Assembly (NCBI RefSeq): GCF_964213995.1
Contig: NC_135808.1
Coordinates: forward strand, 65,596,001-65,660,000
Source: Mustelus asterias
Lineage: Eukaryota
Direction of reading: 5' to 3'
DNA length: 64,000 nt
In this document: in pieces, positions 6,345 through 51,009 of the stretch
Layout of the letters: each line of letters begins with the position of its first letter
Position numbering within the stretch: the first letter of the stretch is position 1
The notes under the pieces: generated by a model
What the model was told of the DNA's origin: nothing
The model's database searches: none
What the model saw: only the letters and a program-made list of their open reading frames with translations
Translations under genes and position numbers: made by a program

Positions 6345-7850
6345 TTGAAATTGATATTGCAATTCAGGAAAATTGCAAGGAACAACATCAACTGACTACG
6401 TGGCCCTTTTCAATTTCATGAAAGCCTTTGACTCTGCCCATTGTGAAAGCTTGAGTATCTTCAAATTTAGCCTCCCTCAGAAATTTGTCATCATTCTCCA
6501 CCTACTCCACAATGACATGCAAGCTGTGATCCTCACCGATGGAACAACCACAGATCCTATTTCAGTGAAAATTGGGATTAATCAAAACTGTGGCATTGCA
6601 CCAACCCTATTCTCCATCTTCCTCACTGTGATACTGCACCTCACCTCCAACAGACTTCCCACAGGCATGAAGATAATGTACAGGATACATGGGAAACTGT
6701 TCAAACTACACTGCCTTCAAAGCCAAACTCGTTTTAGCTTCAGTATGCAGATGGCACATGGGTGCATGCAGACTCAAACTAAGCTCCGGCTCATTCTTGA
6801 CTCCTCCGAAGTATACGATAAAATAAACCTTTTACTGAACATCCGGAAAACTAAGGTCCTCGCCCACAAGGCTCCCAAAGGATAATATCTGTTAAGATTA
6901 ACGGCAGGATCCTGGAAAATGTAAACCATTTTCCGCATCTTGGGAGCCTCCTCTTGACAAAGGTAAAAATAGAGGACAAAATTCATCATTACCTTTGATC
7001 TGTCTACAATAGACTTTGACTAGTGAGGAAATGAGACTTTGAAGATCAGGATCTCTAAGATCATGGTTTATCAGGCACAATGGTCTACATGTTTCAGAGA
7101 CGTGGACGGCCTAGAGCAGGCATCTCAAAAGCATCAGTGCTACCTTTGCAAGATCCTAAAATCCAAAGCTGACTTGCCCACCAGTGAGGTACTAATCACT
7201 CAAAAACACCACTTCGGGGCAGAACATGTCATTTATATATAACAACAAAGTGGTGGAGAAACTCGAGTCTGGCAGCATCTGTGGAGAGAAAAACAGTTAC
7301 ATAGGACTCTTCTTTGAAAGCAAAGTGTTTTACACAAAGCATCAACTCTGTATCTCTCTCCACAGATGCTGCCAGACCTGCTGAGCTTTACTACCCCTTT
7401 CTGTTTTTATTTCCGATCTCCAGTGAACCCTGCAGTTTGCTTTTATAATGGAATTCATACACCTGATAAAAACACCCAAAGCTCTACTCAGGATTCGGTC
7501 ATTACATAAAACTCCCAGGAGGACAACAGAAACTCTCTCGTGCGTCACTAAAACATCTCTGAAGAAGTCAAACATTTGCTGATACATGAGAGTCCCTGAC
7601 TTTTGACGAAAATGGCAAGGTTCATTCGGGTGGGTATTGAACACGTCAAAAGACTTTGTTGGGAACATGCAGAGGCAAAGTCGGGGCATCGGAGAAAGAG
7701 CACAAGTCTCCCAACAGTTCACGTTCTCAATCCTCCCAGCTGTCCTGCAAGTGGCAGAGTCTACAGATTGCATGTTGAACTTATCAGCCATCTCAGAACC
7801 CATCAAACTGGAGTGGAAGCAAGTCATCTTCGATCCCAAGGGACTGCATT
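6345..7850 (+). mobile_element. Decayed RTE-type LINE (RT and 3' end)
   Basis: The ORF at 6373-6885 contains KAFDS, LPQKFVIILHLLHNDM and NCGIAPTLFSIFL (RTE RT motifs). It has many stops, and its 3' end matches the copy at 1276-1370. Confidence 0.85.
7245..7423. mobile_element. Short palindromic Penelope-derived element (second family)
   Basis: Inverted repeat gtctggcagcatctgtggagaga / tctctccacagatgctgccagac, inserted within the RTE fragment. Confidence 0.65.
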
Positions 7851-28970: not shown

Positions 28971-29285
28971 ATCGCTTCTCGGCCTTTTGGCTAAGATCAA
29001 GTGTGGTATTGACATGCTGTGCTTGGTTGAAGTCATTAGGTTACATTTTAGCTTCTTTTGAAGCAATTTTTAAAAGCGGCATCTCGGCCTTTTGGCTAAG
29101 ATGCAAATGAGATCAAGCCTTGGAGGAGGTGCAATGCCTGCTCCAATCAGCTTGGATCATGTAGATCAAGCCCAAGACAGGAGGTGAGAGCCCTGTCTTG
29201 TCAGCTTGGATCGGGAATGTCTCAACTTGTTGAGACTCTGAATTGGACTTGATTTGATTGAACTGGAATAAAAACAAAAAAAAAA
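28971..29285 (+). mobile_element. U2 snRNA-headed, poly(A)-tailed retroposed element (candidate SINEU-like SINE or U2 chimera)
   Basis: 28971-29004 is identical to U2 nt 1-34 (ATCGCTTCTCGGCCTTTTGGCTAAGATCAAGTGT). A second U2 piece (nt 7-27) is at 29082-29102. The body has several hairpins, AATAAA at 29267 and an A-tail to 29285. Confidence 0.75.
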
Positions 29286-38800: not shown

Positions 38801-41800
38801 TGTCTGCAACATATCTACACATGTATGTTTGTACAGCCTTCTCCCTTCAGCTCACTCCTTTCACCCTCAGCACATGAATCGATAGGGGTCATACTCGCAG
38901 GACTTTGCCAGTGCCATTTTGTACATTACTTCAAGTTAGTCTGTTATTTGGCTTGGATCATACTTGTGCAATGATTTTCCTCCTTTATTGTACTGCCATC
39001 CCTATTGCCCGTCTCCTCAACTTCCTGTCCACTTATAATTGGCAGTTGGCTGGGTCACAGTGAGAACTCACGTGCTGGTTAGGTGCATTGGACGTGCTAA
39101 ATTCTCCCTCAGCGTATCCGGATAGACACCAGTGTGTGGCGACTAGGAGATTTTCACAGTAACTTCATTGTAGTGTTAATGTAAGCCTACTTGTGACTAA
39201 TAAATAAACTTTTATAAAATCTATAGTGCAGGCTGTTGATGTACCCATGGAATTATCAGGGCCCAAGATTTTGTTTTGTACCTTTCACTGTTAACCAGAA
39301 GTGATGTAATGGTCTTGGTGCTACACATTCCCTCGCCGCTATTCCATGCAGGCCCTGGCAATCTGGGTGGCAGAAATTTGAGTAGGATTGCAGAAGGATT
39401 CGGAGGTTATGCAAAGCCTGACAGGGACTGACATGAGCCTTCACTCTGTGGTCCCCAGTGGTGTGGTGGCAATTGTGAAGAAACCGAAACCCTCTTAAGA
39501 CGCATTGTAAAAAGACTTGAATATTTACGGAGCTTGAAGTGTCAAATTTTGTTTTGTGTTGTAACTGTGTATTTTAATGCAATAGTATTTTTTAGTCACT
39601 ATGATTGCAGATCACCCTTCACTTATTATGTATAATATGTCTGGGTGAATGCAAGGACAATTTGACAGCATGCCCTGAGCCATGAGGGAAACTACTGAGT
39701 ATTGATCTAATTTCCAGGTAAAATAGTAAATCATTTTATTGCCTGTTTATTTTTATAATTTGTGTTGCAACATAACGTGATTTGAACGTTTTCATTCCTT
39801 TGAAAGTTGTACTGAGCTGTGAAAATAAAAAGTTGTTCACTATCACTAAATCCTATTATTTTTTAAAAAGGAAGCACACTCTATTAAAGTAAGAAAATAC
39901 ATATTTCAGGCTAAGTGGTCTCAGTGAAGTTTTTTTCTCCTTTAGCTTCAAGGTAAAATTCCAGTAAATCAACTCATTGAAATCACTGATCTATTGACAT
40001 TCAGTATTGCAATTCACTTGTGGTCCTCAGATTAATGGATAACATTGAAAAATTGTTTCTTCTCTTCCAGACTTTTTTAAAGTTACAAAATGAAAAAAGC
40101 TTAGTCACAAAAGCTGTGCGCAATTTACACTACAGTCTCTCATACTTTGCCCAGTTTATTTAATCATGAGAGTTAAAAGAAAGTTCCAAGAAGTTAAAGC
40201 ACTCCCGTTTTTCCTAATCATTTGTATTTACAGAGAAAGGATTTCAGATTGCCATTCTAACTTTACAATTTGTTATTCCATCTAAACAGTTTTATTTCCT
40301 AACTGGCACTTCCTTGTTCCTGCTAACACCGGAACTATTCTGTTCCATTTATTATCATGATTACCAATAAGTCGTTAGAACTCCCTATTTCCTTCAGTGT
40401 TATGGTTAACCACTATTGATCCAGCATGTGGAGCTAATCAATTTATAAAGCATTGTGTTTTTTTCTAGAAGTCTCTAGTGTACTTTTATTTTTGTACTGG
40501 AGACAGAACTCGTCATCCATTTATATAAACCAAGATTTTTCAAGATCTTGATCATTTTCCCTCTTGGCCAACATTTTTCCAATGCAATTAAAATCTAATG
40601 AAGATTAATTCTGTGCATTTCTCTTCATAACCTGGTAATGATCCAGGAATTGTCCTTTGTGCTCTCCTCTGGATCTTCCCCAGTGTAACCATGATCTTTT
40701 GGATAAAGGTTGTATGCAAGATTCCAATATAGCCATTACTGTGATTGACATGAGTAAAATGTCCCATTTTAACCAAATTGCAAACCATCGAGAACCTTTT
40801 TACTTGATGTGCTTTACTGATTGCTTTGCATTGATTAAGTTGTTTTGAATAAAGTAATTTATATTCACATTGTAGTCAAAGCAGACAATGCTTGTCTAGG
40901 GATTGCGCCTTTTTAAGTTAGTAGCTGATTGCTTTCAGAACAATGAACAAAGAACAATACAGCACGGGAACAGGCCCTTCAGCCCTCCAAGCCTGCACCA
41001 TTCATGTGTTCCTAACTAGACCATCCGTTTGTATCCCTCTGTTCCCAGTCTGTTCATGTGGCTTTCTAGATAAGTCTTAAATGATCCTAACGTGTCTGCC
41101 TCGAAGTTCCGACAAACTGGTGAATTGGATCAGATGGAAACTGCATTTTCTAAATATCCTGTTTATAAGGAAGAAGATACATGCCTTTAAGTAATATGAT
41201 CCCTGTCAATATGTTTAATTATTCTGCACAATTATTGCAGCAAACTCATAATATATCTACATCATACTACTTCAATGCCCAAGTATCTTGAACCAACTTG
41301 CTTCTGAAAGATAGAATGAACCTTTATTCACTTTTTAAAAAGATTAAATGTAAAACCTGAACTTGGCACTGCAGATATGTTTAACTTAAACAAATTGATC
41401 TACTACTTATGTAGGCATGGAATAAACTAAACACAATGGAGACAAAGGCACGATTTTGTAAAAAAGGGCTGTTTATAAAGGAACAGAGATACTGAATGTC
41501 ACTGGCCTTTCTGAACTAGCTGGGCCATGCATTAATGTAGCCTAAATACCAGTGTGTTACACTTCAAACTATTGCTTCCAGCATGGAACAGAGGAAAATG
41601 ATTGTGAACATCACATATATGGTACTAATTTGAGCGCACAATCTAGGTTGACACTTCAGTGCATTACTAAAGAAGTGCTGCACTGTCAAAGGTGCCATCT
41701 TTCAATGAGATGTCAAAACTGCAACCCTGTCTGTTTTCTCAGGTGAACATAAGTTTTCATGGTAGAATTTGAAGGAGCAGCTGAGTTCTCCAAGATGTTC

Positions 41801-44746: not shown

Positions 44747-44920
44747 GAACAGAAAATGCTGGAAAAACTCAACAGGACTGGTAGCATCTGTGGAGAGAGA
44801 AACAGAGTTAATATTTCACGTCTGTTGAGTCATACGGACTCGCAACGTTACCTCCTGTTTCTCTCTCCACAGATGCTGCCAGACTTGCTGAGTTCTTTGC
44901 AGCATTTTCTGTTTTTATTT
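44747..44920. mobile_element. Short palindromic Penelope-derived element (second family)
   Basis: About 65-bp inverted arms aacagaaaatgctgga...aacagag / ctgtttctctctccacag...cattttctgtt. The centre gagtc-atacg-gactc-gcaacgtta resembles hammerhead helix II plus GAAACGUUA. Single-arm relatives are at ~8322-8450 and ~43725-43810. Confidence 0.7.
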
Positions 44921-47900
44921 CTACTTTTCCTTTCTCAATGTTACAAAGCCAATGTACAGAGTGGATATGGCAAGCCCTTAATCCAACTCCTTGCTTGCTC
45001 CAAAAGTCAATTCAAATTCAGATTGAATCCAATTCAGGATCCCCACAAAAGGGGCATTCAAGATCCAAGCTGACAAGAACAAGAATTACATCTGGGCTTG
45101 TTATTGGCTAAAATATATATTTCTTGCAAGTTATTTCCATTGAGTGTGGAAATGTTGAAAGATTTGGCAGCTATTTTCTGCTGGTCCATGAGGGCTCCTC
45201 CTTTAGCTACCATGCCCTAAATGGCAACCCTGGACTTCCATTGGATTGGTCCATGATGACGCTTGGCAAAGTAGTGCAGTGGTTTGCTGCTGCCTTCTGC
45301 AGTTTGGCTAACCAAGGAATTCCCCTGCTCTCACTGACTGCTGTTCACATCTTGGAAGGACTTACAGGCTGATCGTCAACCTGTTTGGCCACATTATGAA
45401 CGCGGTCAAGTCTGGAAGTGAGATTTGAACCCAGAGCTAGGGACGCTACCAAAAAGACCTCCTTGGGTCTATGATACAGAAATGCCAAATAATATCCTTC
45501 CGTAATAAATAGAGGATAACCTTACCATTAGGGCCAGGTAAGTCAGGAAGCACTTCTTTATACAAAGGTGAATGAAAAAGGGGAACTCTCTTCCCCAAAG
45601 GATTCTTTATTCCTGCCTAATTGAAACTTTCAAGGCAAATCAAATTATTTTGAGAGGTCAAGAGATTAAGGAGCCAAGGCAGATCAATGGAATTTTGGCC
45701 TGGTTTGGGCTTGATCCAATTGAATAGCAAAACATATTTGAGAGGCTAAATGATCTAGTCCTTTTTCTAAGCTCCACATTGAATTCACTAACGTGCCAGT
45801 ATCACACAATGGTGGATTCTGAAATTTTAAACCCCAGACAAATAAAGCTAAATTGTTGCTTCAGTGTTTCAAATAAAAACTTAGTGAGTCAGCTGGTTAA
45901 AGGAATTGAGAGTTGCAACCCTGGAAAGCTTTAAGAACTTTATTTCTTCCTATCTCAAATCTACTTGAAGCTGTTTTAACTTTAGCTCTGCAATCAGTCT
46001 GCATCAAACAACTTACTCAAAACTACATTATCCAAACCCCTCATCCATTTGAAGAACTGAACCAGTACTTTTCAATCATCTTTCGCGCAAAGAAGTCAGT
46101 TAATAAAGTCTTTGTAACTTGATGTTTTGTTGCTGTTACCCTTTGAATCCATTTCTTTTTGGAACGTAGGCTGCCCAAGTTTATCTCCAATATTTTAGAT
46201 ATAATCTTAGCAAAAAATCACAGAGTGAACTCATTTCAAATGCTCAGTCTGTGCATAACAGTTTTATAAATGGTAGCCATGATTTTGTGGACTTGGTTTC
46301 TCATAATCCTTACTATTCTTAATTGCGTCATGATTAAGTCCAAAAATGATTGCTGAAATGGTGTATATTTTTACAATTGATCCTTTCTCTGCTTTATGTA
46401 TGTTGTGATGGTTTTGCAATCAGCAAAAATCCTTGCATACCTCACTCTTCTTCATGAGTGAAGTTAGTGAGTGCCAGGGGCTCATTGAACATGAAGTGCT
46501 TCCTGTTTTCCTACAAATTCAATGTTGTTCTCCTGCAACATTGTCCCCACTCCAAACATGCACACACATGTGCAGATACTCACATGTAGGAGATCCAATA
46601 CTTGTGTCCAGTATTGGTGATTTATTGAAGAATTTCAGAAAAAAATGGGAAATGCCATTTTAAATCTTTTTACAAACATTATTTCAGCAATGTAATTGTC
46701 AGACAAACATTACTTTTGCTGCCAATTAAAGGTTCTATAATATACTGCCAATTGAGCTTTATATGTTTAACCTTTTTTATAGTACATTGAATGAAGATAA
46801 TTTCACAACGTTTGCTATAATTTAATCTGTTACAAAATATGGTTACAAAGATGACAGACCAACTGGCCCATCCATTGATGATCCTTTATGTATTATCATA
46901 CAGACAGGTACAGTTATTCACGGCTTTGTGAATAGATTTCCAGCTCTCTCTCGCTCTCTCTCTCTCGAAGAGATTCAGAAAATCTGTCTTCACCACATAA
47001 ACGGCAAACCCGGTCTACAGGTGCAATGCTCTCTGGAAAGACAGAATTGCCTTATATCCAGCCCAGTACTGTGCCCTGATATAACTTGTAAGAGTGACCT
47101 TGGTCCTCTCTACCTAATGCACTTGAAATAATAAGCCAATGGAAATACAATTGAGTCTCTTGATTAGAACACCCCTGACTCTACACTGCTCTGCATAATA
47201 CAGACACGCACCTCTTGTGTGCCTACCTGGATAACTAAGGTGTTTTAATCATGTCTTTCTTCCCTGCATCCTTTCCAATGCCTCAATATCCCCACCATGT
47301 GATGGGAACAAAATTGGACACAGAACCCTATTGAAACCTAACCACACCCTTACCAGGACAAAATGATACTCTTTTCCTCTGCTGAAGCCAACCTAGAACT
47401 CTGTTTGCTTTAGCAACAGCTTTATTGCATCGGGCATGAATCTTTCAAGACTGAGTTTATTTAAGTATTTTATTTATTAGTGTCACAAGTAGGCTTACAT
47501 TAACACTGCAATTAAGTTACTGTGAAAATCCCCTAATCACCACACTCCGGCTCCTGTCCGGGTACACTGAGGGAGAATTTAGCACTCAGACTGTGGGAGG
47601 AAACCAGAGCACTCATAGGAAACCCACGCAGACATGGGGAGAACGTGCAGACTCCTCACAGACAGTGACCCAAGCCGGGAATCGAACCCGGGTTCCTGAA
47701 GCTGTGAGGCTGTGCCACCCCCGTGTATGTATTACATGTATGTATTACATATATAAAATGCTAAATATGATTTAGATTATGTCGGAACTACAAAAATTTA
47801 TCACGACTCAGCTGGTTATTCATCAATACAATACATTAAAAAGCTGTTGCTTTATTAAAATGAGCCACTTCATATAACAAGATTATTGACAATAGAAGGA

Positions 47901-49134: not shown

Positions 49135-50020
49135 AGGGAACATCCTCCGGGATCAGTCAGGTTCACTGGAATATCTGTAGGGAAGTCAAATTCACTAGAA
49201 TATCTGCAGGGCTCAGTCAAATTCGCTGGCATATCTGCAGGAATCAGTCAAGGTCACCGGCATATCTGCAGAGATCAATCAAGTTCACTGGAATATCTAC
49301 AGGGATCAGTCAAGTTTGCTGGAATATCTGCAGCGATCAGTCAAGTTCGCTGGAATATCTGAGGATCAGTTAAGTTCACTGGAATATCTGCAACGATCAG
49401 TTAAATTCACTGGAATATATGCAGGGATCAGTCAAGTTCACTGGAATATCTGCAGCGATCAGTCAAGTTCGCTGGAATATCCCCTGCGGATATTCCAGTG
49501 AATTTAACTGATCCCTGTGGATATTCCAGCAGACTTGACTGATCGCTGCAGATATTCCAGTGAACTTGACTGATCCCTGCAGATATTCCAGTGAATTTAA
49601 CTGATCCTCACGATCAGTTCAATTCACTGGAATATCTGCAAGCATCAGTCAGGTTCACTGGAATATCTGCAGGGATCAGTCAAGTTCACTGGAATATCTG
49701 CAGGGATCAGTCAAGTTCACTGGAATATCTGCAGGGATCAGTCAAGTTCACTGGAATATATGCAGGGATCAGTCAGGCTAGCTGGAATATCTGCGGGGAT
49801 CAATCAAGTTCACTGGAATATCTGCAGGGATCAGTCAAGTTCACTGGAATATATGCAGGGATCAGTCAGGCTAGCTGGAATATCTGCGGGGATCAATCAA
49901 GTTCACTGGAATATCTGCAGGGATCAGTCAAGTTCACTGGAATATATGCAGGGATCAGTCAGGCTAGCTGGAATATCTGCGGGGATCAGTCAAGTTCACT
50001 GGAATATCTGCAGGGCTCAG
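49135..50020. repeat. 31-bp minisatellite with an inverted block and 93-bp higher-order repeat
   Basis: Unit AGGGATCAGTCAAGTTCACTGGAATATCTGC, about 28 copies; units at ~49483-49610 are reverse-complemented. Confidence 0.97.
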
Positions 50021-51009
50021 CCCTCTTTGCTGAGCTCACTTCCCACTGCTCTGCAGCTCAGGGACGCCTTCAGTTTATTTGAGTCCCATCAATGTCTCCT
50101 TCATTTACCATACATGAAAGGCAAAACCAATTCGTAATGTTGCCTGAGGTCACAAGATCCCAACTTTCTGACATAGAAATTCATGGCATCCAGCGAACTG
50201 ATCAAAAACTCAGTTTTAGCTTCAGAGTAAAAGCTAGTCTTTTATCGAGCTAAGAGCTTTCAGTGCTTACCCTAGAAAAGCTTAATAACTCTGGCGTCCA
50301 TTAGCTGAACATGTTTTCTTCTTTAGAAGGTGAAGAAGTTTCACATTCATTGGACCAGAAATTTCAGTATAGGCCATGCAGTTATCCAGCATGATTAACA
50401 TGCATCTGCCCTGAGCTCAGAATTTCCTATCCATTGATCAAATGCACTCTTCGCAAATCATAACATTCTTCAAAGAACATCAATTAACATGTTACGCGAT
50501 GCCTGCAAGGAAGTGTTGGACATTTTTGAAAGATTTTGGCCACTCACTTTGACTGACGAACAGTTGAGAAATGCTTCTAAGATGTGTCCATTCTGTCGTC
50601 CAGAGGAAATGTTGCATGCACCTTGTCCCTTATAGAAAATAGAGCCATGTCATGATCATGTTAGAGACTGATCACTTTTAAAAGCTTTCTTAAAGAAACA
50701 GCCAATCCCAAAAAACCTATCTAGAACAAAAGGCAAAACTTGGTGGCAGCAGACAACAAGTAAAAGACTCCCTAAAAAACTCCAAAAAAAACCTATAGAC
50801 ATGACAAGCCTACAGATCTTTGCGAAAAGGATTAAAAGAAAATTGATTAAAGATCCATTTGAAAAACTTGAAGCCTTTGTGGTGTAGCAGAAGCAAGGTT
50901 TGACACAGACCCAGAGTCCAGATAGCAGTGAGCACAGACCAGAATTCACATGCCAGACTGATGAAACAGCAACAAGTATAGAGTTTAGTACAAGCATAGA
51001 GTGTACATT

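Follow-up and report, generated by a model that had tools for sequence, protein, structure and literature searches.

A several-thousand-copy U2 snRNA-derived SINE family in the shark Mustelus asterias, with copies inside U2 genes

The window copy and its family

We identified a full-length, U2 snRNA-headed short element of 315 bp in the stretch of Mustelus asterias DNA analysed here (64 kb; 'the window', to which positions without a C label refer). The element, its parts and a copy of an older relative (family C) are located as follows.

28971..29285, + strand: full-length dimeric SINE with U2 head, subfamily A, diverging by 2.4% from its subfamily sample majority
28971..29010, + strand: head, U2 snRNA nt 1-40 up to the Keno site, comprising stem-loop I and the branch-site pairing region
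29014..29042, + strand: imperfect antisense strand, predicted partner of U2 nt 11-38 that masks the head (MFE fold)
29051..29077, + strand: small hairpin, then a U-rich single strand that the Rfam alignment puts on the U2 Sm site (putative)
29079..29104, + strand: second U2 stem-loop I, closing stem extended
29110..29158, + strand: hairpin module 1, tandem duplicate of module 2
29163..29212, + strand: hairpin module 2, homologue of the only module in the older monomer, family C
29213..29266, + strand: hairpin (29219-29236) and U-rich linker, aligned via family C to U2 stem-loop IIb and the pre-Sm-site region
29267..29285, + strand: A-rich tail, AATAAA adjoining
44914..45077, - strand: 5'-truncated family C copy, 78% to family C over 164 nt

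A preliminary description of this DNA had the element start at U2 nt 1, match 34 of 34 nucleotides and leave U2 at about nt 39-40. Comparison with the genome's own U2 gene bears this out: 28971-29009 is identical at 38 of 39 positions, with nt 1-34 exact and the mismatch at nt 35, and in sister copies the U2 match mostly runs through nt 39-40. The second copy of stem-loop I placed at 29082-29102 is also there (U2 nt 7-27, 21/21 identical) and is likely the head of an ancestral monomer. Hairpin modules 1 and 2 align with a score of 52 (highest among 300 shuffles, 28). Rfam reports a U2 match over 28971-29169 (52 bits) and nothing else on the element, neither a U1 part nor a ribozyme. The region 29213..29266 has no significant direct match to U2.

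The element is highly structured, as had been proposed, with an MFE of -112.4 kcal/mol (z = -5.55, 0/100 shuffles equally stable), and all 10 of the 10 copies tested fold strongly (z -4.4 to -10.4). Two negative observations also hold: no ORF of at least 120 aa overlaps the element, and no target site duplication (TSD) was detected in the inspected flanks of the window copy. ARAGORN finds no tRNA gene in the 64-kb window. The AATAAA at 29267 and the A-tail are present as described, but the hexamer is not conserved. It occurs in 16 of 30 subfamily-A tails (counted by eye) and in 0 of 30 tails of an all-subfamily sample, so canonical polyadenylation of the element RNA through this signal is doubtful.

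Other features of the window include an Rfam match to a CPEB3/HDV-like ribozyme at 39392-39467 (- strand, 35.5 bits, cut-off 35), which may belong to a retroelement, and a tandem repeat at 49570-50137 with two open frames in which a 22-residue unit recurs. A 176-aa open frame at 6355-6885 (+ strand) looks like a reverse-transcriptase fragment.

We identified 4,598 exact matches genome-wide to a body 28-mer near the 3' end (control 0) and 637 to a 28-mer specific to subfamily A; as exact motif counts, both are lower bounds on copies. A search of the genome with the body gave 2,631 candidates, and the best 40 other places are 96-98% identical to the window body. A wider search for the U2 family gave 135,653 first-look candidates, a rough figure and no copy count. 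An exact U2-head 25-mer has 3,104 matches; of the 30 that come first on C1, 28 continue into this body, one into a related family and one into other DNA. Head-body junctions of 85 distinct near-full copies fall into recurring types, the commonest with 19, 10, 6 and 5 identical copies.

Most copies in the samples checked retain the U2 head and have the 3' end in common. In two positional samples of 30 copies (all-subfamily, then subfamily A), 5' ends lie within U2 nt 1-15 in 21/30 and 22/30, and TSDs of 9-18 bp flank 13/30 and 11/30; mismatched flanks used as control give 1/150 and 3/200, respectively. Subfamily A has a median divergence of 2.6% from its own majority sequence, and the family comprises many short-lived, mosaic subfamilies. 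Contigs from four runs, belonging to four studies and four organism codes, span the entire body, an observation of presence only and not of expression, start or strand; in one of these runs, loose contig ends run into U2-like letters. The family is thus not limited to the M. asterias genome. The window element is a copy of a several-thousand-copy U2 snRNA-derived short retroposon family and no chimera. One further locus (L130, C1:8827653) has a U2 head that extends to nt 34 and, behind it, a body that by eye is unlike the SINE or family C; this is possibly another U2-headed element.

U2 genes, a Keno-type LINE and SINE copies at its target site

True U2 genes form arrays on C24, where we count 58 major-promoter motif sites. 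A variant U2 that shares about 85-87% identity with the major type forms 448-bp units in a cluster on C21 (C21:28045000-28082000); an intact gene stands behind 4 of the 8 promoter sites in this cluster, and the remainder lead into Keno or the SINE. Both U2 clusters are invaded by a LINE with ZCCHC3-RBD/zf-CCHC domains in ORF1 and APE-RT-zf domains in ORF2, whose protein matches include a zebrafish protein named TX1 149-kDa. The A tail of this LINE is followed by U2 nt 39 onward, and its 3' junction (U2 nt 39-58) coincides with the Keno target as given in the available text of PMC6136364. Keno has an APE endonuclease and Utopia lacks one, according to the accessible part of PMC4640811; the APE domain therefore makes the LINE Keno-type and not Utopia.

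From domains and junction, we assign the LINE in the U2 arrays to Tx1-type Keno, inserting at U2 nt 38/39; the assignment compares the junction at U2 nt 39 with the published target. The Keno-type LINE has its own U2 head. One copy holds an uninterrupted 1,144-aa ORF2 frame (C21:28065689-28069120). The LINE is mainly dispersed, with 593 motif matches versus 33 A-tail/U2 junctions of all kinds. At C24:44815000-44943000, an 8.03-kb unit made of an intact U2 gene, a U2-headed Keno with split ORF2 and U2 39-191 is present in ~15 tandem copies. Keno 3' ends are near-identical across these units, and the repeat is a DNA-level amplification of an invaded unit. Seven U2 units of the major array (C24:43020124-43053408) are 16 nt longer and have a rearranged piece at the Keno site, which looks like a scar that an unsuccessful insertion left and that homogenisation of the array then spread.

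We identified 9 loci at which a family-type tail is followed by exactly U2 nt 39-52 (control 0), seven with this dimer and two with relatives. At C24:43060250-43064357 a promoter is followed by U2 1-40, the element, U2 39-53, a truncated Keno, U2 39-53, the element again and U2 39-191, which represents three insertions at one site. The first of these elements (C24:43060550) is seamless behind its U2 promoter, whose last 120 nt are identical to those of an intact gene at 117/120 positions. On C21, the region 28064221-28064792 contains promoter spacer, element and U2 remainder; this element (C21:28064531) is likewise seamless, behind a spacer identical at 257/260 positions to those of intact variant U2 genes. 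The element thus stands at one of the 58 major-promoter sites and at one of the 8 variant-promoter sites of the C21 cluster. Genome-wide, the variant promoter end occurs at 15 loci, leading into the element at seven, Keno at four and intact U2 at four; six of the seven loci with the element lie outside the C21 cluster.

The master copies with an upstream promoter that had been sought are therefore represented by two candidates, C24:43060550 and C21:28064531. Neither is a proven active master, because they differ from their own subfamily majority by 7.3% (C24) and 3.2% (C21) and the C24 copy has no second head. Of ten copies compared, the one at C24:43063890 lies closest to its subfamily majority (0.7%). 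No promoter-linked copy of the window's subfamily A was found in the assembly. A search for the exact major-promoter end joined to the head and body junction gave two matches, one of which (L063) was rejected as a promoter-linked copy, because its flank matches over only 5 nt and a TSD of its own surrounds it.

More than 99% of family copies lie outside U2 genes, and copies inside U2 genes already bear A-rich tails similar to the dispersed ones. Among 27 dispersed Keno 3' ends, 4 adjoin a family copy; chance would give ~0.0002 per site for an assumed 20,000 copies. No significant tail is common to the body and Keno (2/300 shuffles score as high for the last 120 nt, 28/300 for the whole body), so recognition by Keno rests on shared sites, and another Tx1 or an L1 could mobilise the element. 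Joining of U2 to a known LINE 3' end, which the preliminary description had named among the results that would refute it, likewise finds no significant match in the partner LINE. An internally deleted, SIDE-like Keno was rejected, the body having no significant similarity to the Keno 5' UTR, the whole element or its 3' end.

Several dispersed copies carry DNA of U2 loci. In L263 (C1:70.570 Mb), a 14-bp TSD encloses a subfamily-A element with its tail, then U2 39-191 and 45 nt of the U2 3' flank. L067 has U2 33-53 upstream and U2 39-58 downstream of the element, within its own TSD. In L105 and L107, a U2 piece ending at nt 48-52 is followed by 93 or 36 nt of promoter DNA and then the element, within TSDs, and L065 holds a Keno tail, U2 remainder, spacer, element and truncated Keno, again within a TSD. 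Judged by their structure, these five copies are the traces that would be expected of RNAs made from U2 loci.

Origin of the body and predicted RNA structure

The body had been described as hairpin-rich and not derived from U2. It is hairpin-rich, but its 3' third shows homology to a monomer family that derives from whole U2 and has since diverged. This older monomer, family C, has at least 1,092 exact motif matches in the genome. Family C aligns to U2 nt 44-169 with a score of 99.5 (shuffle maximum 54) and to the 3' third of the element with 95.5 (shuffle maximum 50.5); direct alignment of the element to U2 is not significant (score 23; 103/300 shuffles as high). These alignments indicate that the 3' third of the body descends from the older U2-derived monomer. 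Some family C copies among L160-L189 look intermediate to the dimer, with a duplicated module in L172 and a shortened 3' end in L163 and L188. The family C copies L179 and L225 are directly followed by U2 nt 39 onward. The history probably led from U2 to a monomer with one inserted hairpin, after which the module was duplicated, the 3' end of U2 was lost and a new U2 head was gained. A processed pseudogene colinear with U2 was rejected as an explanation of the element, given the antisense strand, the second head and the duplicated modules.

U2 nt 25-38 are predicted to be paired (probability >=0.7) in 40 of 40 random copies out of the 85, compared with 0.0 in U2 itself. Nucleotides 33-38, which we take to be the branch-site pairing region, are predicted to be paired with probability >=0.5 in 39 of the 40. 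The antisense strand is not significant by plain alignment (28/300 shuffles as high). It is predicted to lock the branch-site region, which would stop the element RNA from disturbing splicing.

We also compared variants across 83 copies (the 85 minus two hyper-edited ones), with helices taken from the window copy and set partly by hand. Base pairs are kept by 19 of 31 variants present in at least three copies versus 34 of 108 private variants (p = 0.003), a value that lends modest support because copies are related and transitions favour wobble pairs. Shared variation is found in 26 of 145 paired versus 53 of 141 unpaired columns, and 7 of 12 shared pair 'breaks' are at loop-closing pairs. Only one two-sided compensatory change was found between subfamilies, in module 2. 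RNAalifold on all 85 copies gives a poor consensus because of loop indels.

Two of the 85 copies, L005 (about 1920-2250) and L099, are hyper-mutated from A to G, with the changes clustered (20 of 22 and 13 of 17 changes in the two copies). Such copies are consistent with ADAR editing of duplex RNA before reverse transcription.

Proposed life cycle, rival readings and known systems

Because the family occurs at the Keno site and behind U2 promoters, and because dispersed copies carry U2-locus DNA, we consider it likely on this genomic evidence that the source copies lie at nt 38/39 of U2 genes, that the host U2 promoter drives their transcription and that Keno enzymes paste them elsewhere. Pol II would start at U2 nt 1 of an invaded gene and read through the insert, sometimes to the U2 3' end. 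Keno ORF2 would prime on the A-rich tail, and relaxed specificity would leave most copies dispersed and without a promoter. On a rare return to a U2 gene, cDNA of the head may anneal to the target and so rebuild a promoter-linked source; target-annealing cDNA has likewise been proposed for R2 in 28S genes (PMC3774820, available text). An insertion leaving a TSD would gain an extra U2 piece at its 5' end, which would explain the second head. If the family borrows the U2 promoter and Keno enzymes, as seems likely, the transcription of elements lacking a promoter would be explained.

The preliminary description had offered two readings, a U2-headed SINE family and a non-autonomous U2-targeting element transcribed from a U2 promoter. 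The former is substantiated by at least 4,598 copies, junctions constant within subfamilies and TSDs; the latter is supported by Keno-site copies with a promoter and/or a downstream U2 remainder. Here, the two describe the same thing. A fuller picture may be drawn of a self-renewing parasitic snRNA that homes into U2 via the Keno endonuclease, is produced as a capped transcript of snRNA type, re-establishes its promoter link through the head, locks its branch site by the antisense strand, arose independently of SINEU and followed a path from U2 through monomer to dimer. We advance it tentatively and give it somewhat less than an even chance of being right as a whole.

An alternative source of the head is template switching, in which body RNA made from unrelated upstream promoters has a U2 head re-added from free U2 snRNA. 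This has been proposed for SINEU-2, which carries U1 5' extensions with variable ends (PMC4494074, accessible text), and both the existence of several junction types and the extra U2 pieces on some copies would fit. We regard this as improbable: identical junctions are common to many copies per subfamily (the sets of 19, 10, 6 and 5 among 85), the end points of the extra U2 pieces (nt 48-58) match the TSD window of the Keno site, and a native locus of such structure exists under a promoter (L112). Copies with the U2 3' remainder and flank, such as L263, are impossible from a 5' switch. The single-locus explanation, a one-off U2 pseudogene or chimera, draws on the missing TSD of the window copy, but its probability is negligible. 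It is refuted by the 40 other places at 96-98% identity to the body and by the motif count, and the body is evidently not single-copy.

Transcription from an internal promoter would make any dispersed copy a source, and thousands of copies set against few promoter-linked ones would suit a conventional Pol III SINE whose A and B boxes evolved from U2. The earlier remark that no pol III boxes are obvious holds for the A box. A 9-mer resembling the B-box consensus is found at 29111 and 29164 and in 32/32 subfamily-A copies. This 9-mer is present in just 17/53 non-A copies (49/85 overall) and comes largely from U2 nt 25-31; moreover, there are five T4+ runs, the first 15 nt from the start, and read-through copies bear U2-locus DNA. 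A Pol III route for the element is unlikely, and the internal-promoter reading in full seems highly improbable to us; a classical Pol III SINE was rejected on the missing A box, the T runs and the patchy 9-mer. The source might also be a U2-variant small RNA gene that the host has domesticated and that has a function of its own, the dispersed copies being its processed pseudogenes. The strong fold in 10/10 copies, the preferential retention of pairs by shared variants (p = 0.003) and the putative Sm-site-like stretch from the Rfam alignment are in keeping with such a gene, which we nonetheless think very improbable. We saw no conserved gene array of the element, copies in the U2 clusters disrupt U2 genes at a retrotransposon site, subfamilies are many, short-lived and mosaic, and structural selection is expected for a parasitic RNA too. 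Transcription from U2 genes and mobilisation by Keno is the reading that we retain.

The closest known elements are SINEU-1, -2 and -3, which in the available text of Kojima 2015 (PMC4494074) are found only in crocodilians and tied to Tx1-Mar and Mariner targets; no cDNA was found and transcription was left open there. So far as that text describes them, they share with the present family a U2-derived head, a length below 500 bp, non-coding sequence, an A tail and internal T runs, 5' ends to which U2 pieces have repeatedly been added, insertions in tandem around the TSD, and a Tx1 partner whose own 5' end has a U2 head. Like SINEU, the family is a multi-copy unit of constant structure (4,598 matches, shared junctions, TSDs), and the same U2 nt 38/39 site together with tandem insertions points to mobilisation by a Tx1-clade LINE through a shared target. 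Family C resembles SINEU-3 as a remodelled whole U2. Unlike SINEU as described in that text, the present family belongs to another lineage, has no U1 part noted, has a partner that inserts in U2 genes and not in Mariner-N4, and has copies in U2 genes behind the promoter; the two are compared here by description.

With Keno (accessible parts of PMC6136364 and PMC4640811), the element has in common a 3' junction that lies at U2 nt 39, together with TSDs no longer than 20 nt. Unlike Keno, it is non-coding and has no significant similarity to it, so it is not an internal-deletion derivative. Like R2 and R2 SIDEs (available text of PMC3414825 and PMC3774820), it is non-autonomous, sits inside a multicopy RNA gene, is co-transcribed in the proposed cycle, and has precise 5' junctions as when the RNA carries target sequence. 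SIDEs are deleted LINEs, ribozyme-released and found in rDNA, as far as PMC3414825 describes them; the present element is built from a host RNA, keeps the gene's own 5' end, is spread genome-wide and has no Rfam ribozyme match. No shark or other non-crocodilian U2-headed SINE was found in the literature searched, which includes the accessible text of PMC5786205 and PMC4758252; Repbase, Dfam and subscription papers lie outside this scope.

We have identified a genuine SINE superfamily that derives from U2 and homes into U2 genes, and M. asterias adds a second lineage with U2-derived SINEs. If the history proposed above is true, the whole path from a U2 gene through the monomer (family C) to the dimer is visible in one genome. 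The recent subfamilies may serve as insertion markers. The proposed cycle also offers a mechanism for the repeated 5' U2 additions of SINEU. Promoters of snRNA genes lie outside the transcribed region, and for that reason it was left open how snRNA-headed SINEs are transcribed when SINEU was described (PMC4494074). Candidate source loci, a partner LINE with a long open ORF2 and read-through copies that mark transcript bounds make this question directly testable.
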